Both the position numbers and the translations under genes were made by a program. A stretch of DNA of 63,066 nt, filler included, from Asterionella formosa (Eukaryota): the NCBI GenBank assembly GCA_002256025.1. It is 16 parts of 16 records of this genome, joined end to end, with 100 filler letters (N's around TTAATTAATTAA, not from the genome) between each part and the next. Parts side by side here need not be neighbours in the genome. Positions count along the whole stretch, not along the records: positions 1 to 21,574 come from NKIB01003003.1; positions 21,675 to 43,239 come from NKIB01003006.1; positions 43,340 to 44,657 come from NKIB01003023.1; positions 44,758 to 46,075 come from NKIB01003024.1; positions 46,176 to 47,492 come from NKIB01003025.1; positions 47,593 to 48,909 come from NKIB01003026.1; positions 49,010 to 50,326 come from NKIB01003027.1; positions 50,427 to 51,742 come from NKIB01003028.1; 8 more parts are not named here. One strand, given 5' to 3'. Shown in pieces: positions 60 through 57,406 of the stretch; position 1 is the first letter of the stretch; every line of letters begins with the position of its first letter. The notes under the pieces were generated by a model. It saw nothing but the letters and a program-made list of their open reading frames with translations, was not told where the DNA came from and searched no databases.

Positions 60-2035
60 ATGGAAACAAGCGACATGTGGCAAATTGCTACTGCCGGTAT
101 TGAACAAAGAAGCAAGTTTCAAAATGAGTTTACAAAGAAAAAGCGAATAGGCGATTATCCAAAGCAACCCAATCGGCGATTGGGAGACATTGGGGGTAAT
201 ACCCCATTGTCCATGGGGACACCATCAGCTTCTAGTACAAAGGATCCCGTAATTGATACTGACAGCAATGATGACGTTTCTACTTCAGTTGTTGCTACAA
301 GAAAAATGGCTCCTGTCGATGATGACATTAATAACTCCCGGATGCAGATGGACGACATGGTACCATATCATCAATTTTACTAATCACACAAACCAACAAG
401 TACATGACAAACTGAGGGAAAAACATTTTGCACTTGCCAAAGGATGTTATCAATTGGTCAATGAACTCAATCACTACAAAAGTCGTAATTCGGTTCAAAA
501 CTCGCTTGTCCATACGAGGTTATCAAGACTCTTCAATTTCAGCAGCCTTATCGGAACGTCGTTCTCGCTTAGCTAAAATTGAACCGATCCATCAATTGTC
601 ACGAAGGTTGTGAGTTTTATATTCAAGACCAAGAAGTCTTGCTGTGAACATGTAAGTTTGATGTTATAGTTTGTGAATTGCAGGTACTGTAAAACAGAAT
701 ATCAATCAAATGTGCTTTTTCCTGGTCCCAAAAGAGAATCAAACATCCCGCCCTGCCTATCTGGTCCAAGTAGTATGAAAGGCATTTCCAATCACAAAAA
801 AGATTGGTTTGACGAATGTTGCCTAACTCGGCTATACACAGTGAAACCGGAGTTAGGCAAAGAAGTGGAGAGTGACTCAGAGCTTGCCAATTTCATATGG
901 AATGGTTCTGATGCACTACTTTCAATGAATCAGACCATTGAACGTACCAACAAGGCATGTTTAGATTACATCAAATCAACATTTGGTGTCATGTGCATTA
1001 AAAAGTTGAGTGAGAGAATGTCAGAATGTATTGAATAATCAATTTAAAGGAATCTTAGGTAAGTTCTTGCAGGGAGATGCTCCGAAAGCATGATGCTTTG
1101 TGTTGGGGATTATATTCTTATCAAATATGTTTGCTAACATAATTCATGACACACCAGCTGGTTTAACAGAATATAACTTCCAGACTATGGATATTGATGA
1201 CTTAATTAGGTGGGCGTTTCGCTTTATCGTCTTGCGCAGTCAAAGGACATTGACAGGGGAAGCCATGGATACCAAGCAAGTCTGGCGTGATGTTCTTGCT
1301 CCGGTGTATTTTATAGGCAGGACAAGCCGTGGAGAACCATTTTTAACAGGTGAAAAATCTGGTGTGACCAAATTTCAACTCAGTCTTCGGGCACAGTGTG
1401 AATTGCAAACACGTTTTGTTGGTTCGCTAATCAGTGCCAGTACAGAAGCATTTTGCTTCTTGGTGCTGAAAGGAAAATTCCGTTTACAAAAAATATATTT
1501 GGGTTTCAATCCAGATACCCATGAAATTTCAGAGAAAAAACGATATTCGTCATTCTACCGATTTTGTCGACATTGGTGGGAAACTACTTATTAAAAAAAG
1601 TGTGAGCAAGGGAAGAAAGTTCAGTTTCAATTGGTCTTACTGATCAATGGACTGATGATGTTGATTTACTCGTTTATTATAAGGAAATCTACACTGGACT
1701 TTCACAAAAGAATGGAATGATGATTTACTCGTTTATTATTAGGAAATCTACACTGGACTTTCACAAAAGAATCGATCTGAATATGGAAAGAATCCTAGTG
1801 GAAATGCTGCTTCAAGAACAAATATCATCTACCCACACTCATACTTCTCATTTCCCAACGTAAGTAAAGAGGATATGCATGACTTTGTTGGATCACTTCA
1901 ACCAAATGTTCTTGAAAAGAATATTGATTAAAATCACCGCATTAATCAATGATACATTGTTGACGATGTCGATTTTGAATGGATCTAATGGAATCCAATG
2001 CATACTTATCAGTTACATAATAATTATAGGAGACA
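60..2035 (+). pseudogene. Decayed multi-exon ORF upstream of the transposase core in the Plavaka-type element; function unknown
   Basis: Frameshifted ORF pieces (60..383, 673..1038 with CRYC..H..C, 1100..1594) and GTAAGT donor-like sites at about 1059 and 1860. Conserved in the copies at 21863-23220 and 39150-40668. Confidence 0.55.
1661..1771 (+). repeat. Local tandem duplication, period about 60 bp
   Basis: TGATTTACTCGTTTATTAT(A/T)AGGAAATCTACACTGGACTTTCACAAAAGAAT occurs twice; single in the paralog at about 39420-39470. Confidence 0.9.
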
Positions 2036-2370
2036 CCTTATGCAATGATACAACTGAATTGAGCGTTGTTGAATTTCATAACATACTTTTGGCAGCATTT
2101 CTTGTTCCTGCTTTGAAACCACAGGAATCAAGGAAATCTCTGAAATACACCGCAAGAAGTTTTGGAACAGATAAGGAAAGATAATTTTTATTTTGCCATG
2201 CCTCCACGTAATTTATGGAAATCAATCGGGTGGGACCAAAAACTAACAAGCGAACGTTGATAATTATATAAGAAGAATATAAATGATAATGGTAACAATA
2301 TAGTTTTGCATACTAAATTGATTATTATGAGGTTTTCACAAACTACAATTTCCTAAGAAATGATTATCCA

Positions 2371-4693
2371 ATGGTCCATAATTTGTTCTTTTTCACTCCC
2401 AAAGAACCTAAGATGGTCCTTCTTGTTTCGTCCGAAATTTTACTTCTCCACTTTTCAACTGGAGTTCGATATGAGTCTGCAAACTTTTTGAAGTTGATTC
2501 CAGAAAGGCTATCATCAGATACAAAATTTTCTTTCAATTTTTTATCAATTTTGATACATCCAGATATTTGGCCAAGAGGTGCATGATTATATCATTTGAA
2601 GGGAGCAAGTTTGTCATTACTTTGTTGTATCATGGATTTTACGTAGACAACTTCATCCTTCTTGAAAGAAGAGTTGCAAGGAACTCGTCCAAATACTTTG
2701 TTCAACATTTTTAAATCTAAATAGGATGTCAAAATTTTGTCGATACAAAATTGAAGAACAGTTATTTCCAACGAGAATTTGTCGTTGTCACTCGAGGCCA
2801 AACTGTGCGTTCCAAGATGAAAGTATGTTGACTTGGTTGGTGAGTCAGATGTAATGGATAAGAAATCGTCTGTTCGATCTGTTGCTACCACCTGCCTGAC
2901 GTCGTTTTAAAACTTTCCAGGACTCAGTCTCCAATCGGAAATGTGCCCGTTTGCCAAGAAATTTGGTTTTGCCATTCCTTTCCTTTCTAATTGCAATAGA
3001 GTTTCCAACACTTTCACAATTGTAAAAGGTCCACATGACCATCCACTGTCATCTTCTGGTTGAAATAACATGGAATCATGTTCAGTGGCCATACTGATCT
3101 GCAATGGTGCTTTGGTGCCAGCATAGAAAGATTCCGAGAAACCAATTTCTTCAGGTATATGGGATTCTTGTGGAAGATATCCTGTATTGGTGCATAACAA
3201 TTCCAATTCTTTTCTGCATCCGGGGATGATGCAGTACTTATAGGCAAGGTGCAATGCTTGATCATAATGTTCATCCACACTTGCACCTTTTCCTGGGTCA
3301 CTGACGTGACATAATCCATCATTTGTAGCAAAAAGATAATGCACAAAATGATTGTTTTCCTCCTCATCTGATCTTTTGCAATACACAATTAGCACACATT
3401 TACTCTCATGATGAAGTGGATGACAATCACCTTGGTATATATATGGATTGCTATTACCCTTTTCTGGGTTCTCATCCAAATCAAATATAGTATAAACTTT
3501 ACATCACTTGGATGAAGCTCATGAATTATATAATGGATCATAGAGTTGCATATATCTTGTGGTGGGGTATGAGTGTACAACTCTTTCCACAATTTTAGTT
3601 GTCCATGCGATTTCATCGATTTCGGTAAACTCAAGGAAAATGCCGTTTGCTTTGGCATAATAAATCTACACATTTCACATGCCGACTCTTCACGAAAGTA
3701 GCTGCCTTCTGGATTGTTTTCAATGATTTTACAAAGAAATTCTTTTTCTTCCATGTATGATTTGGAAAAAGATTCAATATTGTGTTTCTGACTTCGTTCC
3801 CTATTCTGAGTATCAACTGCCTTAGCCAGAATCACATCATATCTCTTTCTGCATTGATCTTCTTGAATTTTAGGTCTTGATCTAGCTCAGACTTTTTCTT
3901 GAATATCTGTTCTTTTAGAAATGCAATAGTTTTTCTGCTTTCATGATGTTCATGTTGATGTTCTGGACGGATAGTGAAATATGTTTCTTTGTTTTGCAAC
4001 TTTTCAACCATTTCTACTTCTGAAGTGTTGTCTGCCACATTTCCGCCGATATTTTCATTCATCGCATGAATTTGTTCATCAAATGAATGAGAATCACTGA
4101 GTTCTTCTTCATTATCAGCGATTTCGGGAGAATGAGGAGATAAATACGACACTGGATGGTGGAACTGTGACTCTCTACGAATAGAGTCTCCATCCACGAA
4201 GACCATTTGTTTGGGTTTCCTGTTCAAAAGCAATCTTCCCTTATTTTCAATCTCAGCCACTATTGTATCGCTTGGCATACTTCATTATTTTTCTAGAGAA
4301 TTATGAATCTGTTCAAATTCATTTGATCCTTGAGTGTATTCAAAGGAATCATCGATTGATTTCATAGCTTTCGTCATCTTCTTTTTCGGAAACATAAATT
4401 TGTGTAGTGTAAACAATGGAAGTAAGTCTCGTTTCTTGTTTGACTGATCCTTTCATTCAAATCCGTGAAATGCCATTTGGAAAGTTGTCAAAGGGCCAGA
4501 AGACTATAATGTAAAACAGTGAAAGGGAAACGCGGAGCTTTTTGCGGCGCTTGTGGAGGTGGAACTGGTGTGATGGTAACTGAGTGTAGTAATTGTTGAA
4601 CAGAGCAAAGTGTAATATGCATGTTCCGCCAGCGTAGGGTTTACACAATACACATGCTGGCATATATATAGCTAAAACAACAAAAGACGACAC
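2371..4693 (-). pseudogene. Ulp1/C48-like cysteine protease cargo gene of the Plavaka-type element (frameshifted)
   Basis: ORF 2907..3479 has NNHF (His 3348-3350), VSDP (Asp 3297-3299) and FQPEDDSGWSCGPF (Gln 3060-3062, Cys 3033-3035), the H-D-Q-C order of clan CE proteases. Upstream acidic/coiled-coil pieces lie at 3389-4278. Confidence 0.7.
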
Positions 4694-5284: not shown

Positions 5285-5735
5285 CTCACATGCTAATCAG
5301 GTCTGAGGCAACGTACAGTGGTTCCAACGAGCGAATGATGATACCACGGGTACCAATTTTTCCAGAAAAAAAACTATTTTCTCTATTGATGAGGATGACA
5401 TGGACAGGGACACCGACTTTTCCAGGAGCAAACAACAATGAAGAGACCCACTTCGTCTGCGTCGCTCTATTGATGGTAACAAAGATGCGGACAAGTTCAA
5501 CAGTGAATACAAGAACAACATACCAATGAAAACAAGTCCACAGTGTGTGCATGCACACGCCAAGCAAGTTTGAGGCAACGGACAATTCCAACAAGCAAAT
5601 GACGATACAGATATCAAATTCTTCCTATGAGCAAACAACAGTGAAAAGAGCCACTTGCTTTCGCTCTCTTGCTTGATGGTATCAAAGATGCGGACAAGTT
5701 CAATAGTTAATTCAAGTACAGTATGCCAAATGCAG
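5285..5735. repeat. Diverged internal tandem duplication (about 267-bp period) in the element
   Basis: TGAGGCAACG at 5304 and 5571, and AAAGATGCGGACAAGTTCAA twice. Also present inverted at about 32420-32880. Confidence 0.8.
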
Positions 5736-6381
5736 AAACGAGCAAGCGATATGAAAATGAAATGCATTCTAATCAGAATCATTCTATAACTATAGCTATG
5801 TGGACAGTAGTCTGTTATGCACATTTTCGTATCTCCTTCTATATTGAATCTCAATAGTAGTGCTAGATGTAATATCATGTGAGAATTGAAAATGTCAAAG
5901 AGAACAAGTACCGGTAGAATGTGTCTGTTTACGGGATGGTTGGCAAGATTGTCATGCTGAAGTGGATGAAACGGATATACTTTGTGCACTGCATGCGGAA
6001 ACATTACGAGTTTGAATGGTTTCTTCTTTCCTGTAAACTCTTAATTGAATGGCTGATTATGAACAAAGGTACACTGCACATGACGATTACTCGAAGATAT
6101 AAAGATCACTTGACCAACAAGTTGAAGATGTTATCACAAACATTCATTCCGCTTGTCATTGCTAGTATTTCGTTGTTGTTGCAAAAATCGGAGTGATGAC
6201 GGATGAAAATGATGAGCCAAATTACATTACTTGAACTGGTACATTGTCCTACCAAGAAATTCGAATACAGGAATCAAATAGAAACAATACCTATAATAAT
6301 TAAATATATGTAGTCAAAAGGGTTACTATTTAAATTACAAAAGCATTTATCAAAATTATTAGATGATATAACGAAAAATTA

Positions 6382-6443
6382 TGATCAGATGATCACAATC
6401 CTATGATGCATCATGGAAATATGATAGTTTTTATTTGCAGACA
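6382..6443 (-). repeat. Terminal inverted repeat of the Plavaka-type element
   Basis: Nearly identical to 15721-15780 and to the reverse complement of 31734-31795. Contains the palindrome ATGATGCATCAT. Confidence 0.85.
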
Positions 6444-14550: not shown

Positions 14551-14562
14551 TTACTAATCCAC

Positions 14563-15780
14563 TATGATGTACCAGTACACATGAAGAACTCCCGCCAAAA
14601 AAAGGGGCTTAAACAATTTGCTACCAAAATCCTTGCGTATAAATAATGATACAAATGAGTTATGACTAAGTACACCAATTTAATGGTCTAAATAATTAGT
14701 TCCAACGGACGTAGAAAATATTGATGAAAACAAATTTCAGAAACAGTACCAGTACACGAAGTCATGGAAAACAATGGACATATAGTGCATTGAATATTTT
14801 CGAATTATTTATTTGTAAATATGATCATCTCAATAATACCAGACGGTCCATATTGAGAGTGCCTTTGATTTTTATAAATGTACGACACTTGATATATTAA
14901 TATATTTACAAATTTTATAACTATGTACATGGCAAATATATTTGAAATCGCTCTGTCATGTCAACAAACAATGCCTACTTCATAAAAAGAAATATTGGAG
15001 TAAAGCGAATGACAAGAAAAGAATAATTTACGCAATAACGAAAAACATTGTGGCTTTGACACATTGCGCCTTCGAAGGGCGGATGGAGTATGTTTAAGGT
15101 AATGAAGCCATCAATGTGGTACTTGGATGAAAATCGTTGGGAGGCAGGACAACAACAAATTTTAAACTAAACGCACATTTCCTTTCTTCTCAGTTAAATC
15201 AACAGCTCGTTTTGCTTGTTGGGGAGCACCAATATAAAACAAAACAAAACAAAGTTGGTAAGTGATCTTGTCATTTGACTTATTCACTTCTGATGGAACA
15301 TCACTGACGGACACGCCACTTTACCTTCTCTCAAAGTTAAGCTAACGAAAATGAATCGGTAAGTTTTATTTGGCAACATTGGAAACCTGAAACTTACTTA
15401 TTGAAGAATTTACTGACAATTTACTATTACAGACTTATACATCACTTGCTTTGATTTGGCTGTGGTAAGTGAAGCAAGCAAGAAGATACGATGGAATGGC
15501 GTGATGTTGTGTCAGTGTAACATGTCTAGCTAACAAGTCGTTTCTTCTCATTGTTACTGTAAATGCGTAGGACAATAAAATCGATCAAAAGGAATAGCCG
15601 GCGAGTTCAGAATGACACTAACAGCAGGGAATGAGACGCAACATTATTAAGGCATTGCTTGGCACAAGATTGTTTTGATCAAAAAATTATCATATATACG
15701 AAAATCCTGTGCCACTTATTATCAGATGATCACAATCCTATGATGCATCATGGAAATATGATAGCTTTTATTTGCAGACG
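14563..15780 (+). mobile_element. Opposite (transposase-proximal) subterminal arm of the Plavaka-type element, ending in the TIR
   Basis: Homologous to 40678-41410, 45506-46075 and 56092-57200. Ends ...TTTGCAGACG at 15780, followed by TA. Confidence 0.75.
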
Positions 15781-25331: not shown

Positions 25332-26532
25332 GGTTGCGGCCCCGCAGTTACAAATTGCGAGGTCCATTTTTTCCCAAAATATTTTTTTGATGATGTACGT
25401 CAATCCACACATCACGTACAAGTAATTATATTAATTAAAGGTAAAATTAGCTTTCACCATTACGACCACTTTGCATATGCTTAGATACTGTCATTGCTCG
25501 ACTTAGGGGTATGATCTATATACAGATATGGTAAGGACCCCATTTCTGGAGAGAAGTGGCAGTTATATATCATAGATTTGTAACTTCCGCAAAAATGGTC
25601 AAAAAAGGGGCTACGAAGCTTTTCAAAAAATCTACAATAGATAACTGCCACTTCTATCTAGAAGTTAACTCCTGACGTAATAGGGTACACGGCTATCTAT
25701 TTTAATCGTCATGAAACCCCGTAGATGTAGAGCAATCCTCTTCCAAAAAGTCGACCTGATCGGCTTTTTCATCAGTCGCCAAAATATTGGAATCGGAATC
25801 AGTACGTGCAAAAACGTTCTTGTAGACTTTGAGTCTTGTGTAGATATGTTTTGCTGAATAATTCTGTCCGAAAAGACTCCAGGGTAAGTTCCCGCATCGC
25901 TACACATATTCTGATTAGTTGAATTGAATTTACTCACCTGCTCCAGATCGGCTGGAGTATCCCGGTCTTTTAAAATTATGCCATCCATACTTGAACCACA
26001 TGTATTAGATGCTCTGTGTACCGGTACCTGGTACCAGGTACCGGTAGGTGAAATAAGTACTACCGGTAGTTTCTGTTTCATCATCCACTGTCATTGACCA
26101 AGATTATGAACTACCGGTATCAGGTACCCTGGTACCCTGGTACACCGTTACTCCGGTATTGGTTTACATACCGGTATGTGCCTTTGAGTGTAGAGTGAAA
26201 TTAAATCTACAGTCAGCAACTAAGATTCAAAATAAACGCAAAAAAATATCATGAGTATACATTTAGGCACACTCCTGATTTATATATGTGTTTTGGCGTG
26301 GAACAAAATTATATTTACATTAAGCAACCTACATACAGTATAAACGTTTAAAAATGATTTTGTTTGTTTAAAATGGAACTCTATCTATCTGGCGCCGACT
26401 CCTATTTAATTCAAATATTCAAATGGACACTCGAATCATGGGAACTCATAGCAGCAAACTCCCTGTTCCATGCCGTTTTTACAACCCTAGTGACGTTTTC
26501 TCCAAACTAGGGTTTACCCGAGGGCCGCAACC
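25332..26532. mobile_element. PIF/Harbinger-like non-autonomous element (11-bp TIR, TAA TSD)
   Basis: TAA|GGTTGCGGCCC ... GGGCCGCAACC|TAA; no transposase ORF inside. Confidence 0.75.
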
Positions 26533-31733: not shown

Positions 31734-33459
31734 CATCTGCAAAAAAAAACAATCATATTTCTATGATGCATCATAGGATTGTGATCATCTGATCATAATT
31801 TTTAGTTATATCATCTAATAATTTTGATAAATGCCCTTGTAATTTAAATAGTAACCCTTTTGACTACATATATTCAATTATTATATGTATTGTTTCTATT
31901 AGATTCCTGTATTCGAATTTCTAGGTAGGATAATGTACCAGCTAAAGTAATGTAATTTGGCTCATCATTTCCATCCGTCATCACTCCGATTTTTGCAACA
32001 ACAACGAAATACTAGCGATGACAAGTGGAATGATTGTCTGCGATAACGACGTCTTCAATTGTTGTTCAATTGATCATTATATCTTTGAGTAATCGTCATG
32101 CACAGTGAACCTTTGTTCATGATCATTCAATTATGAGTTTACAGAGAAGATATCATTCGAACTTGTAATGGTTCCGCACACAGCGCACATTGTAAATCCG
32201 TTAATCCGTTTTGTCGACCACCAGTATTACAATCTCGCCAATCAACCCGTAAACAAACACATTCTACTTGTTCTCGTTGACATTTTCAATTCTCACATGA
32301 TACTACTACATCTACTATTGAGATTCAGCATAGAAGGAGATATGAAAATGAAACAGACTACTGTCCACATAGCTATAGTTATAGAATGATTTTGATTACA
32401 ATTTCTTTTTCATGTCGCTCGTTTCTGCATTTGGCATGCTGTACTTGTATTTACTATTGAACTTGTCCGCATCTTTGATACCATCAAGAGAGCGAAAGCA
32501 AGTGGCTCTCTTCATTGTTGTTTCTCGTAGGAAAAATTTGATATCCGTATCGTCATTTGCTTGTTGGAACTGTCCGTTGCCTCAAACCTCCTTGGCGTGT
32601 GCATACACACACTGCCGACTTGTTTTCATTGGTATGTTGTTCTTGTATTGTATTCACTGTTGAACTTGCTTGTCCGCATCTTTGTTACCATCAATAGAGC
32701 GACAAGTGGGTCTCTTCATTGTTGTTTGCTTCTGGAAAAGTCGGTGTCCGTGTCTTCCTCATCAATAGAGGGACAAGTGTCCTTCATCATTGCGGTTTGC
32801 CGCTGGAAAAATTGGTACCCGTGGTATCGTCATTCGCTCGTTGGAACCACTGTCCGTTGCCTCAAACCTGATTAGCGTGTGTGTATGTGCACTGTCGACT
32901 TGTGTACATTATCATACTCTGTAGTACGATGCAGAATACTACATTTCCCAATCATCTCATAATGATTGATAAGATGATAATGTGTTATCATGATAGGGTT
33001 ACATCGATGCATACATCACCAAAGTATGATACATAATATTGAATAAAGTATATCACATAGCTATGCTACATTGATCATAGAACTAGGATGATTTCTTAAA
33101 ATGTTTATGATATAATTTTCATCAAAATATGATCATGTTAAAATAATACAATGACAATAAAAAAGGTAAAATATGTACGCAAGTGTTATCAATACATCAC
33201 AGAAAAAAAATAAAAAAATAAATCATAAAATATGTTACTTAATATATAAATTCGAATTCAAATGTATACAGTAAAAGCCAACAGTTAATATGATAGTATT
33301 ATACGGTGTATAGGATCTAAGTAGCCTATACGGATGCGTTGATGTGTACATCACTATAATATGATTTGTGATATGGATTGATGCATATCACATACCGGTA
33401 TCCTCAATAACAAGCCATCACGTTCATTGTCATGTCGTTTTTCCTTGTTATAGCTATAT

Positions 33460-35831
33460 ATGCCGGCATATGTATTGTGTAAACACTACGCTGCTGGCGG
33501 AACATGCATATTACACTGTGCTCTGTTCAACAATTACTACACTCGGTTACCATCACACCAGCTGCACCTCCACAAGCTCCGCGTTTCCCTTCCACTGTTT
33601 TACATCATTGTCTTCTGGCCCTTTGACAACTTTCCAAATGGCTTTCATGGATTTCATGCAAAGGATCAGTCAAAAAAGAAACGTTACTTACTTCCATTGT
33701 TTACACTACACGGCTTTATGTTTTCGGAAAAGAAGATGAAGAAACTTGTGAAATCAATCGAAGATTTGCTCCTTTGAATACACTCAAAGATCAGATGAAT
33801 TTGAACAGATTCATAATACTCCAGAAAAAATAATGAAGTATGCCGATACAATAGTGGCAGAGATTGAAAAGAAGGAAAGATTGCTTTCGAAGAGCCGATG
33901 TAGAAACCAAAACAGTTGTTCTTCGCGGATGAAGACTCTATTCCTACAGTGTCACAGTTCCATCCAGTGTCGTATTTTGCTCCTCATTCTCCTGAAATCG
34001 CTGATAATGAAGAATAACTCAGTGATTCTCATTCATTTGATGAACAAATTCATGCGATGAATGAAAATACCGGCGGAAATGTGGCAGACATTACTTCAGA
34101 AGTAGAAATGGTTGAAAAGTTGCAAAAACCAAAAAATATATCTCACTATTCGTCCAGAACATCAAGATGAACATCATGAAAGCAGAGAAACTATTGAAAT
34201 AGATTCAAGAAAAAGTCCGAGCTAGATCAAGACCTCGAAATCAAGAAGATCAATGCAGACAGAGATGTGATGACCATGCTGGCTGAGGCAGCTGATGCAC
34301 TGAGTCGGGAACGAAGTTTGAAGCACAAAATTGAACCTTTTTCCAAAACATACATGGAAGGAAAAGAATTTCTTTGTAAAATCATCGAGAACAATACCGA
34401 AGGCAGCTAGCCTATTTTTGTGAAGAGTCGGCATGTGAAATGTGTAGAGTTATTATGCCAAAGCAAACTGCATTTTCCTTGAGTTTGCCGAAAACGCAGC
34501 ATGGACAACTAAAATTGTGGAAAGAATTGTACACACGTACCCCACAAGAAATATGCAATTACGCCTCTGTATTTTATGGAGTCAAAGGTATCAAAAAATC
34601 ATCTTCAGATTTTAAAGATTTTGCATATTGGGACCTTGAAACAATTACCTCTATGATCCATTATATAATTCATGAACTTCATCCAACTGATGTAAAGGTT
34701 ATACTATATTTGATCTGGATGAGAACCCAGAAAAGGGTAATAACAAACCGTATATATACCAAGGTGATTGTCATCCACTTCATCATGACAGTAACTACTA
34801 TATGTGCTAATTGTTTATTGCAAAAGATCAGATGAGGAGCAAGGAAAACAACCATTTTGTGCATTATCTTTTTACTATTAATGATGGATTATGTCAAGTC
34901 CTTGATCCAGGAAAAGATGCAAGTTTGGATGAACATTATGATCAAGTATTTCACCTTGCCCATAAGTACTGGCACTGCATCATCCCTGGATGCACGAAAC
35001 AATTGGAATTGTTATGCACCGATACAGGATATCTTCCACAAGAATCCCATATACCTGAAGAAATTGGGTTCTCGGAATCTTTCTATACTGGCACCACAGC
35101 ACAGCACCATTGCAGATCATTATGACCACTGAACATGATTCGATGTTATTTTAACCAGAAGATGATAGTGGAGGGTCATGTGGACCATTTACAATTGTGA
35201 AAGTATTGGAAACTCTATTGCAACTAGAAAGGAATGGCAAAACCAAATTTCTTGGCAACCGGGCACAATTCCGTTTGGAGACAGAGTCCTGGAATGTTTT
35301 AAAACGTCAGGTGGTAGGACCGCAACTGATCGAACAGACGATTTGTTATCTGTTACATCTGACCCACCAACCAAATCAACATACTTTCATCTTGGAACAG
35401 TTTGGCCTCAAGTGACAACGACAAACATTCATGAGGATAAGTTTCAGTTGGAAATAACTGTTCTTCAATTTTGTATTGACAAAATTTTGACCTCCTATTT
35501 AGATTTAAAAATGTTGAACGACGTATTTGGAAGACTTCCTTGCAATTCATCTTTCAAGAACGATGATGTTGTCAAGGTGAAATCCATGATCCAACAAATG
35601 AATGAAAAAGTTGCTCCCTTCAAATGGTATAATCATGCACCTCTTGGCCAAATTTCTGGATGCATCAAAATTGACAAAAAGTTGAAAAAATATTTTGTAA
35701 CTGATGATAGCCCTTCTGGAATCAAATTGAAAAAGTTTACAGACTCATATCGAACTGCAGTTGAAAAGTGGAGAAGAAAAGAAAAATTTCGGACGAAACG
35801 AGAAGGACTATCTTATGTTCTTTGGGAGTGA
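33460..35831 (+). pseudogene. Ulp1/C48-like protease cargo gene, copy 2
   Basis: FAYWDLETITSMIHYI (W..D..I..Y-like motif), ENNHFVHYLF..VLDPG, PEDDSGGSCGPF. Gln codon changed to TAA; frameshifts. Confidence 0.7.
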
Positions 35832-36149
35832 AAAAGAACAAATAGCTAATGGACCATTGCTCGGGATCATCCAATCTCATCATTCCTCAGGACATTTTAG
35901 TTTGTGAAAACCTTCTAATAACTTAACTAGTATGTGAAACTATATTATCCCTATTATTTATATTATTCTTGTGTATTTATTAACGTTCGCTTGTTAGTTT
36001 TTGGTCCCACCCGATTGATTTCCATATTATGACGTGGAGGCATGGCAACACAAAAAAATTATCTTTCCGTATCTGGCTGCCTGTTCCAAAACTTCATGCG
36101 GTTTCAGAGATTTCCTTCGTTTGATTCCTGTGGTTTCAAAGCTGGAACA

Positions 36150-39120
36150 ACAAACATACGTTTATGAATTTTCATTTCAGTTGAACTTTTCAAGGAATGA
36201 ATACACGCTAAAAAATGGTGGTTGCGTTGGAGAAAATAACATTTCCCCAAACAAGTAGTTTTGCCGGATCTGTGTTGGAACTTGATCCATCACCTTTTTC
36301 CCAGTTCACTTCGACCCAGCCAGTCAAAACATTCACGACCAGAGATTCCTGCATTTGAATCATTATTCCATTTCGGATGGCATCTGAAAATAGTAATTTT
36401 GCATGGAACGTTGCTTTCAATTTTAACATGATAATAACAGTCAATCCTTAAAATGGAAACATCACCAGGCCCAACCCCATCTTCAAGACTTTTTATTCTT
36501 GCTATTTCTATTGCTGAATTCGCAATGCTCTTTACGTAGTTGGCCCCCTTGTTCGGTAAATCAGGATGAACCAATTGAGACAAGGGTGCATCCTTACTCC
36601 GTGATAAATGCCCAATCCTATTAGGGACACCTGCTATAGTCCATAGACCATTTGATGATGAAGCAGAGAATTGAACTTTAACAGGAAGGGATGGTGAATG
36701 GTTCTTGGTAGGCGATGTTACCAAATTATCAGGCGACGTACTAGGCAACATCCCTGTAGTATCTGGAATCATTCCTTCGAAATCAATTTCTGTTGAAATA
36801 CCCTCAGTTACATTCATATGTACTACTTTACTCATCTTCTTTTGTTTGTTTTCTGTATGTAATTAAACACTTGCAAAAACAATTTTTCATGCCAAGGCAA
36901 ACTTCCTTGTTTCATATGACCTTGTTAACATGTCATGCTTTATCGATGTAATTGTCCATTGACACGCTTACTGGGTTTCTCGTTTCAATTTGTCTTTAAA
37001 AAAGACACCAAATATCCACCAAAGAAATTAAGAGGAGATCCGAACTTCCTAATCAGATGAGGGTAATGTTTCATTACATGAAATTTTGCCATTCGCAAGC
37101 CAATTTGAGATATTATTTCCCGTTGGGGACCAATCATAATCTTAGTAACTGACATAAACCTCTTAATCCTTTCCTCTAAAAATTCAATACATGCCGATGT
37201 ATACTGCGGTATGAATAAAGTGTCATTGATAGAAATACATTACCATAACAGCAATGTGAAATCCTTTTCTAGGTGCATGTTCTCTGAACCCATCATTCCA
37301 CCCATTGAAAAAATAGTTAACAGACATAATCCGGGAATTTCTTGCCCTGACATTTTTGACAATGCTGTCATCCCAGATCTGTATGACAATTTTGGAATAT
37401 CACGATCGCTTTGCCTTATCTTTCCAAATGACTATTGATATATCTAGCACTTTGTTCGAATTATAGTATAGTTTCGAAAATACATTTCTGGTGCTGGTAC
37501 AAGTGTTGGGTCTTGATTTTTGCCAGTGTACTAGATATTTTTGGTAACTAGCTAGTGCGTGTGTCCTTTTTGGTCTTAGCCTGTTTCTTCGGTTACTTTT
37601 GATCAAGTAAAGCAATGTCTGTTGTTTCAGTGATACGTTTATGATCAGCTATGTTTCTTGGAATATTTGGTGATTTTCTTTGTTTAAAAAAGTCCATTCT
37701 TCAGGGATAGTCCGATAATTGTACAATGATTCCAAAATGTACTTAAATATTCCAAGTAGTAATTGATGAAGAACCTCAAATGGAGTTGCACCAAATATTC
37801 CTTCTAAGTCACCACCAAAAAAATGATTTATCAGTGCAGGCACAATAGGATTATGCGATATAACACGGCACCACTCGTTCGCTGTTGCGTATTTGCCATT
37901 AGATTGGGAGACACAATACTCAGGTGGGATACATGGTAATTTTCCATTGGGATATGCATTTTTGTCAAGAAATTTGTTTAAAAACATTTTAACATCTGAC
38001 ACTTTACGACATTCACATCCAATATCAGGATTATCAGCATCCTCAGTTGAAACCAGGCAATCACGACAAAGATATCGTCGATATAATCCATTACCACCCC
38101 TGAGCCACAAATTTTATTGTGTTCTTCTGTATCACCAATGATCATTCCAATCTGGAAATAAACTTTTGTCATACCAAGACCATGAACCCAAATATCGTAT
38201 GACTTATTTGGATCTTCGAAAGGCGACATTTGAAATCCTGTAACAGAATGGTATCATTTGAGTCGACATAAGGACAAGTCGTCACCAGCAGATAACTTAT
38301 TATTCATTTGTTTCTCCAGATCACTGACTTCAATGTCTGGCAAAAGAGATACCAATTGACATCCATCAACTTTTTTCCTTCCTTCTAACGTTAAGTTTAA
38401 CATTGTCAACAAAAACGGATGCTCGGAATTTTTCATTTGTTTATCAATAGGTGAACCATCACTGAAAACTGCTGGGGCAAGAAATAAACTCCCTGTCTTG
38501 ACTTCAACACTCCATTTTCTGATGCAGCAGAATTGTTGACCGCATTTTCAAACCAAGTCGCGGAAGTTACTTCGTCATATATGCATTCTCCACAAGTTGT
38601 ACGTTTCACTTGTGCTGGGTGACTTACAAAATGTTGCATGATTTCGGAATCACGTAGCAATCCTGCCATGAGCTGTACTGGTTCGAAATAATCGAGTGTG
38701 CGTGGGATGATCATGTTTGAATTGTTATCAATCTGCATTTGTTTGGTCAACAGTTGACCACCAGCTAATGTTGGTGGAAATGAAACATCGATGCGTTCCT
38801 CCAAAGTCTGGTAGAATGGAGCTTGATACCTTCCATCAAAATGTTTCATTGCTTTTGCCTTGAACAGCCATTTTATTAGATGATCAAAGTGAACTGGTGG
38901 AAGCAAGGTAATTCTCAATAAGGAATAACATGAGTTCTTATTCGATTGGATGCGCGCATGTTTAAGAATGTTTACTTGGAAGTTGAAATTGAGGAGGAAG
39001 GGGAATTTCCATTTCATTTTCAGGGAGAAAGCCGGTGTGATCTTGGAAATCTGTATATTGCATGATTTCTGCATTCAATCCTTGGATAGTCTTTAGTCTC
39101 AATTCTTCGTCTTGTTGTGA
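36150..39120 (-). pseudogene. Plavaka-family (CACTA/CMC-related) DDE transposase, decayed
   Basis: IYDEVTSATWF, VFSDG (Asp 38458-38460), HPFLLTMLNL, IIGDTEEHNKICG (Asp 38131-38133), CRDC, GIFGATPFEVLHQLLLGIFK, MAKFH, IRKFGSPLNFFGGYL(V)SFLK with the expected Glu position read as Val at 37006-37008. Confidence 0.82.
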
Positions 39121-42100
39121 CATTTATGGTATGATTTGAATTTTGTAAGTCTCACTTACTATATTTTTTATGTAACTAAGTACCGGTATGCATTGTTGGA
39201 TTATATTAGATCCATTCAAATTCATCATCAATGTCCCGTTGATTAATGCGATCATTGTACTCAATATTCTCCTCAGGAAAATTTGGTTGAAGTGGTTCAA
39301 CATATTGATGCATATCCTCTTCAATTACGTTGGGAAATGAGAAGTATGAGGGTGGGTAGATGATATCTGTGGTGGAAGTACTAGCAATTCCACTAGGACT
39401 CCTTTCATATTCAGATCGATTCTTTTGTGAAGTTCTGTGTAGATTTGCTTATAATTAGCGATTAAATCAGCAAAGAAAACCTTCAGCCCATTGATAAGTG
39501 AGACCATTTGAAACTGAAATTTCTTCCCTCACACTTTTTTGGTAAGTGGTTTTCCACCAATGTTGACAACATCAGTAGAATCACGAATATCGTTCTCTGA
39601 AATTTCGTGGGTATCTTGTTTGAAACCCAAATATTTTGGTTGCAATCGTAATTTTCCTTTCATCACCAAGAAGCAGAATGCTACTGTGCTGGTAGTGATG
39701 AGCGAACAAACAAAACGTGATAGCAATTCACACTGTGCCCAAAACACTGAGTTGAAATTTGGACACACCAGATTTGTCTCCTGTTAGAAATGGTTCTCCA
39801 CGGCTTGTCCTGCCTATAAACTACACTGGAGTAAGCACAGCCATCTCTCCAGACTTGGTATCCATGGCTTCCCCTGTCAATGTCCTTTGACTGCGCAAAA
39901 CGATAAATCGTGAACGCTAATACCACCTAATAAAGTCATCAATATCCATAGTCTGGAAGTTATATTCTGTTGGACCAGCTGGTGTGTCATGAATTATGTT
40001 AGCATATTTAAATTCAAACATATTTGATAAGAATATAATCACCAAATCAAAACATCATGCTTTGGGAGCATCTCCCTGCAAGAACTTACCTAAGATTCCT
40101 TTAAATTGATCCTTCAATACATTCTGACATTCTCTCAACTTCTTTATGCACATGCCACCAAATGCTGGTTTGATCTAATCTAAACGTGCCTTGTTGATAC
40201 ATTCAATGGTCTGATTCATCGGAAGTAGTGCATCAGAACCATTCCATATGAAATCGGCAAGCTCTGGGTCACTCTCCACTTCTTCCTAATTCCATTTTCA
40301 CTGTATAGCCGAGTTAGGCAACATTGGGAAAACCAATCCTGTTTGTGATTAGAAATGAATTTCATACTACTTGGACCAGATAGGGCGGGATGTTTGATTC
40401 TCTTTTGGGACAAGATCAGAAACTTAAACATCAAACTTACATGTTCACAGCAAAACTTCTTGGTCTTGAAAAACAACTCACAACCTTTGCGACAATTGAT
40501 GGTTCAATTTCAGCTAAGCGGGAACAACGTTCTGATTGATAAGGCTGCTGAAATACAAATTTCTTGATAACCTTGTATGGACGAGTTTTGAACAGAATTA
40601 CGACCTTTGTAGTGATTAAGTTCATTGACCAATCAATACAATTAGAAAATTTATGGTATGAAACCATGTTAGGGTTATATACAAATTTTATAACTATGAT
40701 ATACATGGCAAATATATTTGAAATTGTTCTGACATGTTAACAATCCATGCCTGCTTCTTGAAAAGAAATGTCTTAGTAGCATATGACAAAAGTTTACGCA
40801 ACGAAAAACATGGTGGCTTCGACACATTGCCCCTTCGAAGGATGGAGTATGTTTAAGCTAATGAATATATCAATGTGGTACGTGGATGACAATCTTTGGG
40901 AGGACAACATCAAATAGTAAACTAAACATTTCCTTTCTTCTCAGTTGATTCAATAGCTCATTTCGCTTGCTAGGGAGCACCAATGTAAAACAAAACAAAA
41001 TTGGCAAGTGCTCTTGTCCTTAGACCTATTCACTACTGGTGGAACATAACTGACGGACACGTTTTCGTTCGTTTCAAAGTTAAGCTAAAGAAAACAAATC
41101 AGTAAGTTTTATTCGACAACATTGGATACCTGAAACTTACTTATTCAAGCATTGACTTACAATTTACTATTTTACAGACATATACATCAGTTTGCTTTGA
41201 TTTGTGGTATGTGAAGCAAGAAGATACGATGAAATCGCGTGGTGTTGTGTTAGTGTAACATTACTAGCTAACAAGTCATTCCTTCCCATTGTTACTGTCA
41301 CTGCATAGGACAATAAAACCAATCAAACAATGGAATAGTGGGCGAGTTCAGAGTAACACTAACAGCAGCGAAAGAGACGCAAAATTAGTAAGGCACTGCT
41401 TGGCACAGGATTCACAATGGAGGAAGAAAAGGGCGAGGACAGGAACAATATACATTGAGAAGAGTGGAGAGGAGCAAAACATTCCTTGAGTCGCTGTAGA
41501 AACAGAAATGGCATTTGATAGTTAAATAACAATCCATTTTAACAATGCTTGTGATTAGAATTATGATGATGTTTAAGATAGAAATACAATGAAACTATTC
41601 ACATGATAGCATAGAATTTAGTTGCATTTCCATAACTCCGTCAGCCTCAACGACATCAAATGGTGGCTCCAGAAGCTCAGAAGCTCATCTTCGCCCTTGG
41701 CTGCTCGAATTTGCACTCTTGTTACTTGTTGAGCCACAATGACACACTTCGAGACCATACCACCCTGTCGAATTCTCTGCTTGGTTCTTGGTGACATGAT
41801 AATGACCCCAATACTGAACAACAATACGTGGGTCTGATATACCGACTAATTCTCCTATCAAACAGGCTATGGGGAGATAACTGAACCTAATTTTGTAATT
41901 AGCGCTGTCGAAGGATACCTCATAAAAAGGGTGATCACAAAGCAATATCCAACACAACTTGTTGGATCGAAAAAACTCTAAATATTCCAGATAAGGATTA
42001 CCTGTGTTAAAAGGTCTTGTACTCCTTCCCGTCTGATGGGTTGCCTCTTACGCAGGACTTACCTGTTGTACCACTAGTATTGTTATCTTCTTTATGCTGC

Positions 42101-45505: not shown

Positions 45506-46075
45506 TATGATGTCCCGGTACACATGAAGAGCTCCCGCCCAAAAAAGGGGCTTAAACAATTTGCTACCAAAACCCTTGCGGCATTTGAACGGTCTAAATA
45601 AACAAATTTCAGAGATAATACCGGTACACATACCGGTAGTCGTGAAAAAAATGGACATATAGTGCATTGAGTATTTTCGAATTATGTATATGCGAGTATG
45701 ATCATCTCAACCATATCAGATGTTACATATCGAGAGCGCCTTTGAATTTTATAAAATGTTTAACACTTAATATATATATATATATATATTTACAAATTTT
45801 ATTGTTATATTCATGGCCAATATATTTTTCAAATCGTTCTGTCATGTTAACAAACAATGCCTGCTGCTTCATGGAAACATATGTCGTAGTAAAGCACATG
45901 ACAAGAAAAGAAAATTTTTGCAATACATAACGAAAAACATTGTGACTTCGACACATTGCGCCTTCGAAGGATGGAGAATGTTTAAGGTAATGAAGCCATC
46001 AATGTGCGTGGTACTTGGATGACAATCGTTGGGAGGCAGGCAGGCAGCACAACAACAAATTGTTAACTAAACACA
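45506..46075 (+). mobile_element. Plavaka-type subterminal arm fragment
   Basis: Homologous to about 14563-15175. Confidence 0.75.
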
Positions 46076-51742: not shown

Positions 51743-51842
51743 NNNNNNNNNNNNNNNNNNNNNNNNNNNNNNNNNNNNNNNNNNNNTTAATTAATTAANN
51801 NNNNNNNNNNNNNNNNNNNNNNNNNNNNNNNNNNNNNNNNNN

Positions 51843-53159: not shown

Positions 53160-53259
53160 NNNNNNNNNNNNNNNNNNNNNNNNNNNNNNNNNNNNNNNNN
53201 NNNTTAATTAATTAANNNNNNNNNNNNNNNNNNNNNNNNNNNNNNNNNNNNNNNNNNNN

Positions 53260-53533
53260 ATCCAGGATAGTAATCATCTAAAATGTTGGTCCGAAGATTC
53301 TTTTTGTTTCTTGTTCTTCCAGCAGCTTCTTTCTTTTTCGATTGTTCCAGACAAAATCCCTCGTACCAAGTTGGGACAATGTACTCTTGAGGAGGATAAC
53401 GTACTCCTGCTGTTGTTCGTGCTGCTGCTGCAGTTGCTGTTGCTATTTTTCTTGCTGTTTCTTCTGCTTCTGTGGTTTCTTCAGCTTCTACTTTCACTTC
53501 TACTGCGTTTGTTCTTTTAAATCTGTCTGTCAT
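53260..53533 (-). CDS. 5' part of an unidentified ORF
   Basis: MTDRFKRTNAVEVKVEAEETTEAEETARK... stays open into the gap; GA-rich leader upstream. Confidence 0.45.
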
Positions 53534-54424
53534 GATGATTACGATGATAATGCTGAGAAGGGTGTCAATGACGTGGAAAAGAGAGAGAGAAAGAGTGAGG
53601 GAGAGCGAGAGATGACAACGACAAGGGTGACGTTTTTTGAAGAACCAATAAAAAATGTGGGAAGATAGCATTACCGCAAATTGCGGTAAATTTCCTGAAA
53701 CTAAAGATTTAGTTTTCTTTATCCGATATTAAATTGTTTATTTAAGCAAAATGACCGCAGCTTGCCGGTATACGGACCGATGAGACATAAAAATAGTTCA
53801 TTGCTTTAAATGTATTCATGTATATATATGTAAAATATGGTTAGGCAGGCTCTACTGGACAATGGTGAGTCATACACTTGCTGGATTGTGTTGATGTGCT
53901 TGAGTACCGGTACCAGGTACCTTGTACCAGGTACTCCCTACCAGTTGCTCCCTTTACCTGGTACCAGGTACCAGGTACCTATTTACATACCGGTGTACAT
54001 TTCAGCATCATATATATATGCTTATAATTTTATACAGATATATCGGTATGCATTGGCACCAGTACAGGTATCTCTGTACGTTTGTATCATAGGTACCTGG
54101 TACTGGTACCTTGGTTTAATATTGTGCCGTGGCTCAGTAAACTGTGTACATGATTTTTTTGTATCCACATCCTCTGCAACTACGACCGGTACTCAGTACA
54201 GTACCAGGTATTCCTTACCCAGGTTGCTAAAAAGCAAAGAAGAATCTTTGCCAGGCACACACTACCGGTACGTAGTATCAGCCAGCAAAGGAAAGTGATG
54301 GACTAAAATAAAATGTCGGTATAAAATCTTGATCGTCTTCGATTGCCATATACTCTCAATCCTTCTTCTTCTTCTTCTTCTTACTATTATTAATTATATT
54401 ATTATAACCTCTGACTGCAGATCA

Positions 54425-54575
54425 ATGAGGAGTACTACCATCACAGAGCTCCCTCTGGTCACAGCCAACGATGGCGCTATTATTCGTTCCTTTGAATTGT
54501 CCAATAGCAGTGGGATTGTTGTTGTCCTTTCCTCGGTCGGTGCTTCCATTCAATCCATCCTAGTTCCTAATTATT
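54425..54575 (+). CDS. Aldose 1-epimerase (galactose mutarotase)-like N-terminus
   Basis: IRSFELSNSSGIVVVLSSVGASIQSILVP matches the GalM pattern F.L.N..G..V.....GA.I.S..VP; cut by the gap. Confidence 0.65.
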
Positions 54576-54675
54576 NNNNNNNNNNNNNNNNNNNNNNNNN
54601 NNNNNNNNNNNNNNNNNNNTTAATTAATTAANNNNNNNNNNNNNNNNNNNNNNNNNNNNNNNNNNNNNNNNNNNN

Positions 54676-55262
54676 TTCATTGTTAGAAATTCAACAACAA
54701 AGAAAGGTCGGCAAAGATCAATCTGAGAAACACCTGGGACACCCATCCTACTGTCCTCATCGTCACTGGCAAACTCATCAGCACCAGTGTCATCTTCATT
54801 CTCGTCGTCCTCCTCCTCCTCCTCCTCTTCTTCTGGTTGAGTCTGTTGTTGTTCTTGTTGCTGGTGACGGCGACGTTCAGCCAAGCAGCCTTGGAGAGGA
54901 AGGGAAGCCCTCCCTGGCTGCTCTCCTTTGACCAGAAGAAGATGAAGACATGGCCGAAATCTTAAAGCGATGACGATCGATTTAGTGAGGAGGTTGATTG
55001 ATATGTAACGATAGCTATGCATATGTATATGCATACCTATTTTGGCAAGAGCAAGCCATTTTGAGTATGAGCAAGCAAGTCTTGAAATATCCCGGGAAAT
55101 TCTATATAGTCATTCATGTCTAAACATCTTTTTACATAATGCACTGTTATTTATAACTGTAAAAAATTTGTGGTTGTGTTGACCAAATTTTGGGGTTATG
55201 GGTACAACGATTTATGTTATAATACACATGATATAATAATTTTTTATTATCAGAGCGCGCCC
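54676..55262. mobile_element. Second copy of the GGGCGCGCTC-TIR element (right part)
   Basis: Homologous to about 10940-11791 with an internal deletion; ends GAGCGCGCCC|AGT. Confidence 0.85.
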
Positions 55263-56091
55263 AGTACCGGTAGCTAATTGTCTCGAAGTTACATCGCTTC
55301 CTATATTTGCGATACTGAAAAGAATAGGGTGTGGTGGACTGTCTATCAGGTGGTACCGCTACCTGGTACAACAGTATATACCGGTACACTTGAAAGCATG
55401 GAATACATCCATATTAATTACCGGGATGTAATCATGTGGTAATTTACAGCGATTTGGACTGCATACCGGTACACATCATGATGTTCCTATTTGGCGGCTG
55501 TACACATGTACTGTATGTATACCAGACTGCAGGCAACATTTCTGCCGCGTATCTTCTCCATGCATATGTTACTCGGTTTTTCTGGGACTTGGTACAGGTA
55601 TCTGGGGGGTACCTGATACATGTCATACCGGTATCTACAGTACCAGGTACCACGTACCCAGCTATTGTTAATACCTTTCTCAATTGCCGCGTATCGGATC
55701 TTATTACAGGTACATACATACTACGTATGTATGTAGGACTGTCCTTTTATGATTTATGATACTATGGAGCACTGGTATTCGGTACCAGGTACGGTACTAC
55801 ATATACTCTGGTCATCGATTATAATAATTAAGAATATCCAGTTGTCTTTTACCGGTAGGAGTAAAAATCATTCCTATACTGGTAGGTGCGCACTGTCAAG
55901 CGTTCCATTTTCCTTGGATCGCCAAGCCATTGCTGTGTGCCATTACGATGTGGTCCGTATCGCTCAATTCCGAGATCTACCTGTACTTGTGNNNNNNNNN
56001 NNNNNNNNNNNNNNNNNNNNNNNNNNNNNNNNNNNTTAATTAATTAANNNNNNNNNNNNNNNNNNNNNNNNNNNNNNNNNNNNNNNNNNNN

Positions 56092-57406
56092 ATATATGAT
56101 AAAATGTTATGATCATATGATGCACACACGAAGAACTCCCGCCAAGTAAGGGGCTTAAATAATCAGCTACCAAAATCCTTGCATATAAATAATGATACAC
56201 ATGGGTTGTGACTTACACCAATTTAATGGTCTAAATAGTTAGTTCCAACAGACATAGAAGATATTGATGCAAACAAATTTCAGAAACAGCACCGGTACAC
56301 GAAATTGTGGAAAACAATGGACATATGGTGCATTGCATATTTTCGAATTATCTATATGCAAATATGATCATTGGTACTAGCAGATGTGCCATATTGAAAG
56401 TGCCTTTGAATTGTTTAAATGTTCGACACTTCATATATTTACACATTTTATAGCTATATACCTGGCAAATATATTTGAAATTGTTCTTTCATGTTAACAA
56501 ACAATGCCTGCTTCTTGAGAAGAAATATCGTAGAAGCATATGACAAGGAAAGTTTACGCAATAACGAAAAACTCTGTGGCTTCGATACATTGCGCCTTCT
56601 ATGGATGGAGTATGTTTAAGGTAATGAAGCCATCAATGTGGTACATAGATGACAATCGTTGGGAGTGGACAACAACAAATTGTAAACTAAATGCACGTTT
56701 CCTTTCTTCTCAGTTGATTCAATAGCTCATTTCGCTTGTTGGGGAGCACCAATGTAAAATAAAACAAAATTGGTAAGTGCTCTTGTCGTTGGACCTATTC
56801 ACTCTTGATGGAACATAACTGGCGGACACGCCATGCATGTTTACCTTCTCTCAAAGTTAAGCTAACGAAAATGAATCGGTAAGTTCTATTCGACAACATT
56901 GGATACCTGAAACTTGCTTACTTATTCAAGAATTTACTGACAATTTACTATTACAGACTTATGCATCACTTGCTTTGATTTGGCTGTGGTAAGTGAAGCA
57001 AGCAAGAGGATACGACGGAATTGCGTGATGTTGTGTCAGTGTAACATGTCTAGCTAACAAGTCATTCCTTCTCATTGTTACCACTGTAACTGTATAGAAC
57101 AATAAAAACAATCAAACAAAGAAATAGTCGGCGAGTTCAGAGTGTCACTTACAGCAGGGAGAGAGTCGATACCTTAAGCACTGCATGGTACAAGATTCAG
57201 AATGTAGGAAGAAAAGGGCGAGACAGGAACAATATACATTGAGCCAAGTGGAGAGAGAAACATTGGTTTGCTGGCCTGTAGAATCATAGATAGCACTGCT
57301 AAATTTGATAGTTAAATTACGATCCATTTCAATCTATTTTGAACAAAGCTCGTGATTAGAATTATGATCATGTTTAGGATAGATATATGATGAAACAATT
57401 GAAATG
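56092..57406 (+). mobile_element. Plavaka-type subterminal arm copy
   Basis: Homologous to 14563-15670 and 40678-41600. Confidence 0.8.

Follow-up and report, generated by a model that had tools for sequence, protein, structure and literature searches.

The scars of the transposons Tc1, Sleeping Beauty and Mos1 keep both TA copies of the target site and a few bases of the element ends. Fill-in at staggered breaks of the TOP2 type leaves pure tandem duplications of 2–4 bp, with no constant filler. According to PMC4561436, mariner/Stowaway footprints retain the target-site duplications (TSDs) together with short element ends, PIF/Pong elements excise precisely, and hAT elements (Ac/Ds) have 8-bp TSDs and palindromic footprint bases that derive from the flank. 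The CMCT group (CACTA/Mirage/Plavaka) is described as having TSDs of 2–5 bp of free sequence, 2 bp in PlavakaA and 2 or 3 bp in PlavakaB (PMC12730594), and termini CA...TG, TGT...ACA or CATCA...TGATG (PMC4482050, PMC12730594). In the ISL2EU/PIF-Harbinger group (PHIS superfamily), the terminal inverted repeats (TIRs) usually start with G or A, and the 2-bp TSD of ISL2EU is always AT, within A|AT|T (PMC4482050). Here we analyse a 63,066-nt stretch of DNA from Asterionella formosa (GenBank assembly GCA_002256025.1; hereafter the window), in which copies of repeats differ by a short insertion that duplicates a variable dinucleotide XY around a constant GC, giving XY-GC-XY.

The window consists of two contigs of 21.6 kb each and fourteen of ~1.3 kb, with 15 joints of the form N44-TTAATTAATTAA-N44 (21575-21674, then every ~1417 bases from 43240 to 61751). 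As it is a chain of joined contigs, distances across joints are meaningless. The DNA is eukaryotic and repeat-rich, with copia-/gypsy-type fragments (RVT_2, gag_pre-integrase, integrase zinc domain) and repeat families A, B, C and D (Table 1), whose copies diverge by 9–25%. Of the sites of the insertion cited in an earlier note on this DNA, all 17 that were checked hold the stated motif, with paralogs that lack the extra 4 or 5 nt. The reiterated form AGGCAGGCAGGCAG at 46034 and the nested form CTGGCTGCCTG at 36073 are likewise present, and the TA-GCC-TA variant was confirmed as TAGCCTA at 33322 and 34408.

In self-alignments of the window the commonest gap length is 4 nt (59 of 260 gaps, against 56 of 1 nt). 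Gaps were called from all pairwise alignments of the window copies and 10 metagenome copies of family C (L001–L010), left-normalised, and merged by shared context into non-redundant clusters. The 4-nt indels fall into 48 clusters, four of them of low complexity (homopolymers or dinucleotide repeats). Microhomology of at least 2 nt marks 32 of the 44 others, and 25 of these 32 can be read as XY-GC-XY, where the GC dinucleotide frequency predicts 3.0 (Poisson-binomial P=4.7e-22), which bears out the claimed enrichment of the GC centre. Some of the 25 are versions of one site (the AG site occurs at 15142, at 46034 and in L003 and L004), leaving ~22 independent sites. Where the microhomology is exactly 2 nt and the centre therefore unambiguous, it is GC in 11 of 13 events and CA in 2 (P=2.4e-14). 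An alignment-free test agrees, with 278 XY-GC-XY hexamers against 177.2 expected from tetramer counts (ratio 1.57, z=7.6), the highest ratio among the 16 possible centres. The inverted arrangement XY-GC-Y'X' stands at expectation (191 against 187.1), so only the direct repeat is in excess. At least 10 dinucleotide types, from every dinucleotide class but CG, serve as XY, with some preference for AA/TT, AT and TA (AT is the XY of 52 of the 278 hexamers); next to the scar, a preceding C and a following G are slightly preferred. This class of scar accounts for about half of the 4-nt indels and for many 3-nt ones.

Where direction is readable from the aligned copies, the scars are mostly derived insertions. 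The long form is outnumbered by two or more short partners in 12 of the 25 clusters (up to 1 against 13), which argues for insertion rather than deletion between microhomologies. The long form is the majority in 6 of 25, where at least at 15142 and 15171 the sole short copy is the most divergent one, and 7 of 25 are 1 against 1 and carry no polarity. The same scars, nested ones included, are found in contigs of other assemblies (JGI, ENA; L001–L010), where they are inherited in step with the relatedness of the copies. Two of these contigs, L008 and L010, are 99.07% identical and differ by one TG-GC-TG indel, which hints at a recent change, with the proviso that metagenome contigs of high-copy repeats can be chimeric.

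The scars belong to a wider grammar. Indels of 3 nt with exactly 2-nt microhomology have G or C as their centre in 9 of 10 cases (P=0.0014), among them TA-C-TA, GT-C-GT and AC-C-AC (three times), and are about as numerous as the 4-nt scars; at 5 nt there are TT-GGC-TT and, twice, TA-GCC-TA. Besides the nested CTGGCTGCCTG at 36073, ACGCAGCCAC occurs in 8 of 10 metagenome copies, and such nesting, like the reiteration at 46034, is expected where a scar is struck again. Plain 2-nt duplications without filler are rare outside microsatellites, so that bases carried by an element fit better than plain fill-in. Templated insertion of the polymerase-theta type, or other local copying, was rejected as the source of the filler, as a 5-mer donor lies within 45 nt in 6 of 20 events against ~5.8 by chance. 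Replication slippage of the microsatellite type fared no better: 11 of the 13 events with exactly 2-nt microhomology are XY-GC-XY and not tandem copies of the adjacent unit. Only the reiterated arrays (46034, 15474-15484) may have grown later by slippage.

The hexamers are unevenly distributed. Families A, B and C hold 103 against 46.6 expected (2.2-fold), and non-coding small contigs unrelated to them are also enriched (13 against 5.0 at 43340-44657 and 10 against 4.4 at 58922-60236). By comparison, the copia element has 11 against 12.8, a long terminal repeat retrotransposon (LTR-RT) stretch 22 against 18.3 and the 23-31 kb stretch 33 against 30.3, together 66 against 61.4 (1.07-fold, no enrichment), and small contigs with long gag/pol open reading frames (ORFs) are unenriched (4 against 4.2; 3 against 4.6). 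The description of the insertion as pervasive therefore stands for old, degenerate non-coding repeats, where the scars pile up, but not for intact copia/LTR coding sequence or the 23-31 kb stretch, and the simplest reading of this distribution is build-up with age in DNA free of selection. Family D, a DNA transposon with TIRs, has two scars in 558 aligned bases. From its scars and those of the unrelated contigs it follows that the process is not tied to one family's own copying.

We favour the reading, at a probability of roughly one half, that XY-GC-XY, XY-G/C-XY and XY-GGC/GCC-XY are excision footprints of a family of cut-and-paste DNA transposons or its miniature derivatives. The 2-bp direct repeat calls for a 2-nt staggered break with filled-in 5′ overhangs. 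The filler is constant whatever the flank, so it does not come from the flank, and it is strand-symmetric, G then C, which is what two identical inverted ends leave and hence favours footprints. From this we infer a transposon origin and cutting at the element ends. Such an element would insert by a 2-bp staggered cut at nearly any dinucleotide, with a mild A/T-rich preference, and on excision both copies of the 2-bp target duplication would remain, each flank retaining one element end base and sometimes two (G at the left flank, C at the right). In the leading geometry, ends of the form 5′-G(G)...(C)C-3′ would have their 5′ strands cut one base inside (occasionally two), as in Tc1/mariner, giving XY-G and C-XY. 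Joining without overlap would then yield GC, overlap of the single-base G tails as a mismatch would yield G or C alone, and two bases kept on one side would yield GGC or GCC. The comparable numbers of 3- and 4-nt scars parallel the similarly common CCWGG and CCGG fillers of the TA class described below, and are in keeping with this geometry. Alternatively, GC...GC ends would leave 2-nt self-complementary tails that anneal directly, or, as a second option in the earlier note had it, C...G ends would be read as their complement after 5′-side opening of a flank hairpin that takes in the first element base. These three geometries are inseparable from sequence alone, and all are conjectural.

Among described systems, Tc1/mariner elements (ITm; Stowaway/Osmar, Tc1, Sleeping Beauty, Mos1) come close, as their footprints keep both 2-bp TSD copies with 1–3 element end bases and are short, stereotyped and often palindromic insertions (PMC4561436). 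Here a structure compatible with two TSD copies and 1–3 end bases is seen in 25 of 32 clusters plus the 3- and 5-nt variants, and in these G and C may come from element ends. The Tc1/mariner TSD is, however, TA only, whereas the GC class uses AA/TT, AT, TA, CA/TG, AG/CT, AC/GT, GA/TC and GG, and its filler is G/C instead of the CC...GG of the TA class. With at least 10 types of XY the GC class does not follow the TA rule, which is kept only by the TA-CCGG-TA/TA-CCWGG-TA class. CMCT is the sole eukaryotic group in the literature surveyed with 2-bp TSDs of free sequence as found here, and the variable 2-bp duplication of the GC scars agrees with its 2–5 bp TSD of loose sequence. ISL2EU and PIF-Harbinger, with TSDs of AT or TWA, differ in that XY is variable here, with AT in only 52 of 278 hexamers, and filler is left. 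Like hAT footprints, the scars are short palindromic additions between kept TSDs, but their filler is GC whatever XY is, and XY-GC-Y'X' is unenriched (191 against 187.1). With TOP2-type fill-in they share a short direct duplication at a staggered break; they differ in that a GC filler is regularly present, XY-XY alone being rare.

A second, stronger signature is found in the same DNA. Against 0.29 and 0.35 in shuffles, there are 28 copies of TACCGGTA and 22 of TACCWGGTA, an excess of ~100-fold, and they often stand in arrays; 28 of the 93 CCGG tetramers sit within TACCGGTA. In paralogs, TA alone is found at positions of this kind (5908; the GTAC site in family C). CCAGG (13) and CCTGG (9) are about equally frequent and CCATGG is absent. 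This class resembles what a mariner-type element with CC(W)...(W)GG ends would leave, and fully fits a Tc1/mariner-type footprint with both TA copies, a few end bases and a central mismatch resolved either way; its source element was not found in the window. The class indicates that the genome is heavily scarred by cut-and-paste elements and that end joining keeps both TSDs and end bases.

We searched for a source of the GC scars. Among the hits of three scans for TIRs under a 2-bp flank rule, none rose above chance level except a candidate filled site at 37660-37801, whose 12-nt terminus (GGAATATTTGGT) occurs once more at 57682-57693. Large paralog-specific insertions considered as TIR elements turned out to be intron-like segments or internal deletions, and scans of viral contigs found nothing. 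No transposase domain was found in 22 chosen ORFs at E up to 1, and no CMCT transposase was detected among the window ORFs. The earlier note had pointed to a Plavaka-type source with C...G ends, which could not be confirmed: both C...G-type TIR elements in the window (10610-11794 and 24215-28614) lack matching 2-bp flanks. In the first, the right end adjoins TA in both copies, and it is probably a non-autonomous Tc1/mariner-like element; an outer inverted repeat, CCAGGTACG...CGTACCTGG at 10565/11841, was rejected as element ends, since only 9 nt match and the motif is itself among the abundant TA scars. The second is flanked by AT and TG (TAT and TGT), a mismatch. It encloses an ORF for a bacterial-type S-adenosylmethionine (SAM)-methyltransferase (27095-28153), whose nearest relative is a cluster of 58 members at 91% identity, and the ORFs of this element and of families A/B have no Pfam match at E up to 1.

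What speaks for excision footprints is the duplication, the constant and symmetric filler with no local template, the half-scars, the nesting, the derived direction of the insertions and the TA-specific footprint class in the same DNA; the evidence that would decide, a filled allele, a transposase or a matching element, was not found. The following points weigh against it. In the window and the 10 metagenome copies, no element was found sitting between XY duplicates where a paralog is empty or scarred. None of the 101 window ORFs of at least 90 aa has a DDE transposase domain, and the window yielded no multi-copy element that combines a 2-bp TSD with G...C ends, nor a verified one with C...G ends. 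The candidate at 37660-37801 is a single complete copy within an open reading frame, possibly a chance inverted repeat, and is therefore a lead only. The excess of scars in A/B/C amounts to 2.5 to 6.9 per kb, which is high for footprints, and the lack of excess in the 23-31 kb stretch (33 against 30.3) needs selection or young age. XY-GC-XY is seen in none of the 12 small indels listed, out of 30, between public-run contigs and the window, so ongoing activity is not demonstrated. Relatives of the CMCT elements form flank hairpins, and their scars should vary with the flank instead of showing a constant GC. Direct retention of the CMCT ends would leave a CG or TA centre, and GC would need the complement route through an opened flank hairpin. 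In the literature surveyed, no described superfamily joins a 2-bp TSD of any sequence to a GC scar that is always the same. The source element may therefore represent a new lineage or cut with a new geometry. The full-text literature searched, which is of partial coverage and hence weak evidence of absence, holds no description of the XY-GC-XY or TACCGGTA signature.

It is possible, though doubtful, that the scars were made without any element by a nuclease, such as a domesticated transposase or a topoisomerase- or Spo11-like enzyme, whose 2-nt 5′ overhangs were filled in with one G added per 3′ end. The missing source element in the window, a filler that is strand-symmetric and without local template, and 3-nt forms readable as one-sided additions would all agree with this, and the high scar density is easier to reach without one transposon visit per scar. 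Plain XY-XY, however, should then be the commonest fill-in product, yet it is rare outside microsatellites; the filler is strictly ordered, being GC in 11 of 13 and never CG, GG or CC; and a G-adding rule cannot make the CC...GG fillers of the TA class, which resemble element ends. We know of no end-joining polymerase that adds exactly one G per end. The version without transposon footprints, in which staggered 2-nt breaks by a host or domesticated nuclease fall preferentially on non-coding repeats and repair adds the fixed palindromic GC, seems to us quite improbable; if true, it would mean an indel-based, frameshifting degradation of repeats with an effect comparable to repeat-induced point mutation.

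A process coupled to the repeats, either a copying error of families A/B/C or a repeat-directed frameshifting mutagenic defence, is unlikely. It would explain the 2.2-fold excess in A/B/C against 1.07-fold in copia, LTR-RT and 23-31 kb, many scars are common to sub-lineages of family C as if born in master copies, and intron-like segments present or absent between copies suggest an RNA intermediate. Against this, scars also occur in the TIR element of family D and in unrelated small contigs, the multi-copy intact copia is spared (11 against 12.8), unlike what a repeat-sensing defence would do, and age with absence of selection explains the distribution more simply. To our knowledge, no polymerase or reverse-transcriptase error makes a fixed GC between 2-nt repeats. 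That the long form is ancestral and the short form a deletion between 2-nt microhomologies is very improbable: the clusters with a long majority (6 of 25) would suit it, as would L008, which lacks a scar held by its 99% relative L010 and seven other copies, through secondary loss or in a chimeric contig, but single or minority long copies face 2 to 13 short partners in 12 of 25 clusters, no outgroup copy has the long form at the singleton sites 15077, 46004 and 56914, the hexamer excess is a net gain, and the constant GC in the lost 4 nt would go unexplained. The window is made up of short contigs from a genome very rich in repeats, but a sequencing or assembly artefact is hardly credible, since the same scars, nested ones too, recur in 10 contigs of independent assemblies and agree with the tree of the family copies.

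If the scars are excision footprints, one cut-and-paste family wrote the main class of indel into the neutral DNA of an abundant lake eukaryote, at several scars per kb. Recognisable scars of this kind could act as a clock and map of past transposon traffic, and as a read-out for excision assays. If no element exists, the signature points to an undescribed process of break and repair.

Table 1. Scar sites, candidate elements and repeats of the window (positions along the whole stretch; no strand is assigned to the scars).
Feature	Position	Remark
CT-GC-CT (CTGCCT), family A	753..758	common to copy near 22569, not at 40382
AA-GC-AA (CAAGCAAG)	1274..1279	1 long against 2 short copies
GT-GC-GT (GTGCGT)	2805..2810	paralog near 35397 without scar
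CT-GC-CT (CTGCCT)	2892..2897	3-nt scar GT-C-GT 6 nt downstream
TT-GC-TT (CTTGCTTG)	5669..5674	1 long against 2 short copies
AT-GC-AT	5762..5767	4-nt indel between repeat copies
TG-GC-TG	6050..6055	1 long against 2 short copies
GG-GC-GG (GGGCGG), family C	15077..15082	only in this copy, 1 long against 13 short partners
AG-GC-AG (AGGCAG)	15142..15147	same site reiterated in other copies
AC-GC-AC	15171..15176	second scar CA-GC-CA nested within (ACGCAGCCAC) in 8 of 10 metagenome copies
TG-GC-TG (TGGCTG)	15457..15462	common to copy at 56981
TT-GC-TT (TTGCTT)	32666..32671	1 long against 3 short copies
TA-GCC-TA, 5-nt variant	33322..33328	
TA-GCC-TA, 5-nt variant	34408..34414	
TA-GC-TA (TAGCTA)	35843..35848	
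Nested scar CTGGCTGCCTG	36073..36083	read as CT-GC-CT, then TG-GC-TG inside
CA-GC-CA	39838..39843	4-nt indel between repeat copies
GT-GC-GT (GTGCGT)	46004..46009	only in this copy, 1 long against 13 short partners
Reiterated AG-GC-AG-GC-AG-GC-AG	46034..46047	AGGC three times
CA-GC-CA (CAGCCA), family D TIR element	54878..54883	
TA-GC-TA (TAGCTA), family D	55012..55017	
AT-GC-AT (CATGCATG)	56833..56838	4-nt indel between repeat copies
TT-GC-TT (TTGCTT)	56914..56919	1 long against 9 short partners
TG-GC-TG	56981..56986	4-nt indel between repeat copies
Array TA-CCGG-TA-CCTGG-TA-CCAGG-TA-CCGG-TA	26019..26046	
Cluster of TA-CCGG-TA and TA-CCWGG-TA scars	53905..53977	
TA-class sites, e.g.	26019-26176, 53905-54270, 55265-55857, 57546-57817, 62504-62804	
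Candidate filled site, 142 bp	37660..37801	unverified; perfect 13-nt TIR GGAATATTTGGTG...CACCAAATATTCC, GG...CC ends, TT/TT flanks
TIR element, 1.2 kb	10610-11794 (and copy 54676-55269)	53-nt TIRs AGTGGGCGCGCTC..., ends AGTGGGCG...CGCCCACT
Element, 4.4 kb	24215-28614	CACTA-like ends CACTCATTG...CAATGAGTG; inverted ends CACTCATTGAATTTTGTAGGA / TCCTTCAAATTTCAATGAGTG, 90% complementary
Repeat family A	99-2029, 21863-23220, 39159-40633	
Repeat family B	2098-6441, 31736-36154	
Repeat family C	14560-15720, 40640-41640, 45480-46075, 56092-57406	
Repeat family D (TIR element)	11255-11798, 54743-55269	
Intron-like segments	34559-34648; 4930-5235; L002 against other family C copies	~330 bases in L002

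The series C, A, a 3-kb middle part and B recurs in contig 2 (1-6441 against 31736-40633 inverted, and 40676-41605), and these parts may together form one unit of ~11 kb. ORFs of families A/B/C and the middle part have no Pfam match even at E up to 1, a search for longer homologues gave none, and an Rfam search of the window had no match. Among 1.84 billion representatives the family B ORFs have 28 relatives, all of them short fragments of the same family. An Atlas search with the ORFs of the ~11 kb unit gave a sub-threshold lead (0.88) to capsid-like proteins of Preplasmiviricota (polinton-like viruses), on which we do not rely. Intron-like segments with GT...AG-type ends and a pyrimidine tract occur in part of the repeat copies and are cleanly missing from the rest, which suggests that families A/B/C spread at least partly via spliced RNA. 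Families B and C have in common a 64-base terminal sequence ending ...TTTTTATTTGCAG (6379-6442, 15716-15779, 31729-31798 and the end of L002), which resembles a 3′ splice site or an element terminus that both share. In L003 (761-1031) and L004 (1311-1626), next after a truncated copy of family C, there is a foldback whose arms, at least 150 bases long, differ by a TA-G-TA scar.

Elsewhere in the window, a satellite at 51843-53159 consists of 188-bp tandem units that are 85–91% identical, with no indels between units. Over the whole window CpG observed/expected is 0.61, TG/CA are in excess (1.30/1.28) and TA is low (0.74), and the depletion of CpG with excess of TG/CA is a pattern as under cytosine methylation. 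Contigs of four public runs (X1-X3 and X6) were compared with window positions 1-20000, where most joints resemble intron-like or internal deletions; in one run 346,889 contigs match this 20-kb stretch. The summed contig depth of families A/B/C is hundreds of times that at 13341-14007, a depth that is not itself a copy number, and these families are probably very high-copy. The run that best matches the window is labelled algae metagenome. Two lake-water runs yielded pieces from the low-depth stretch at 12.8-14.0 kb, 1205 and 1231 nt long, which show 0 and 5 differences from the window, and such near-identity indicates that the organism or a near relative lives in lake plankton.

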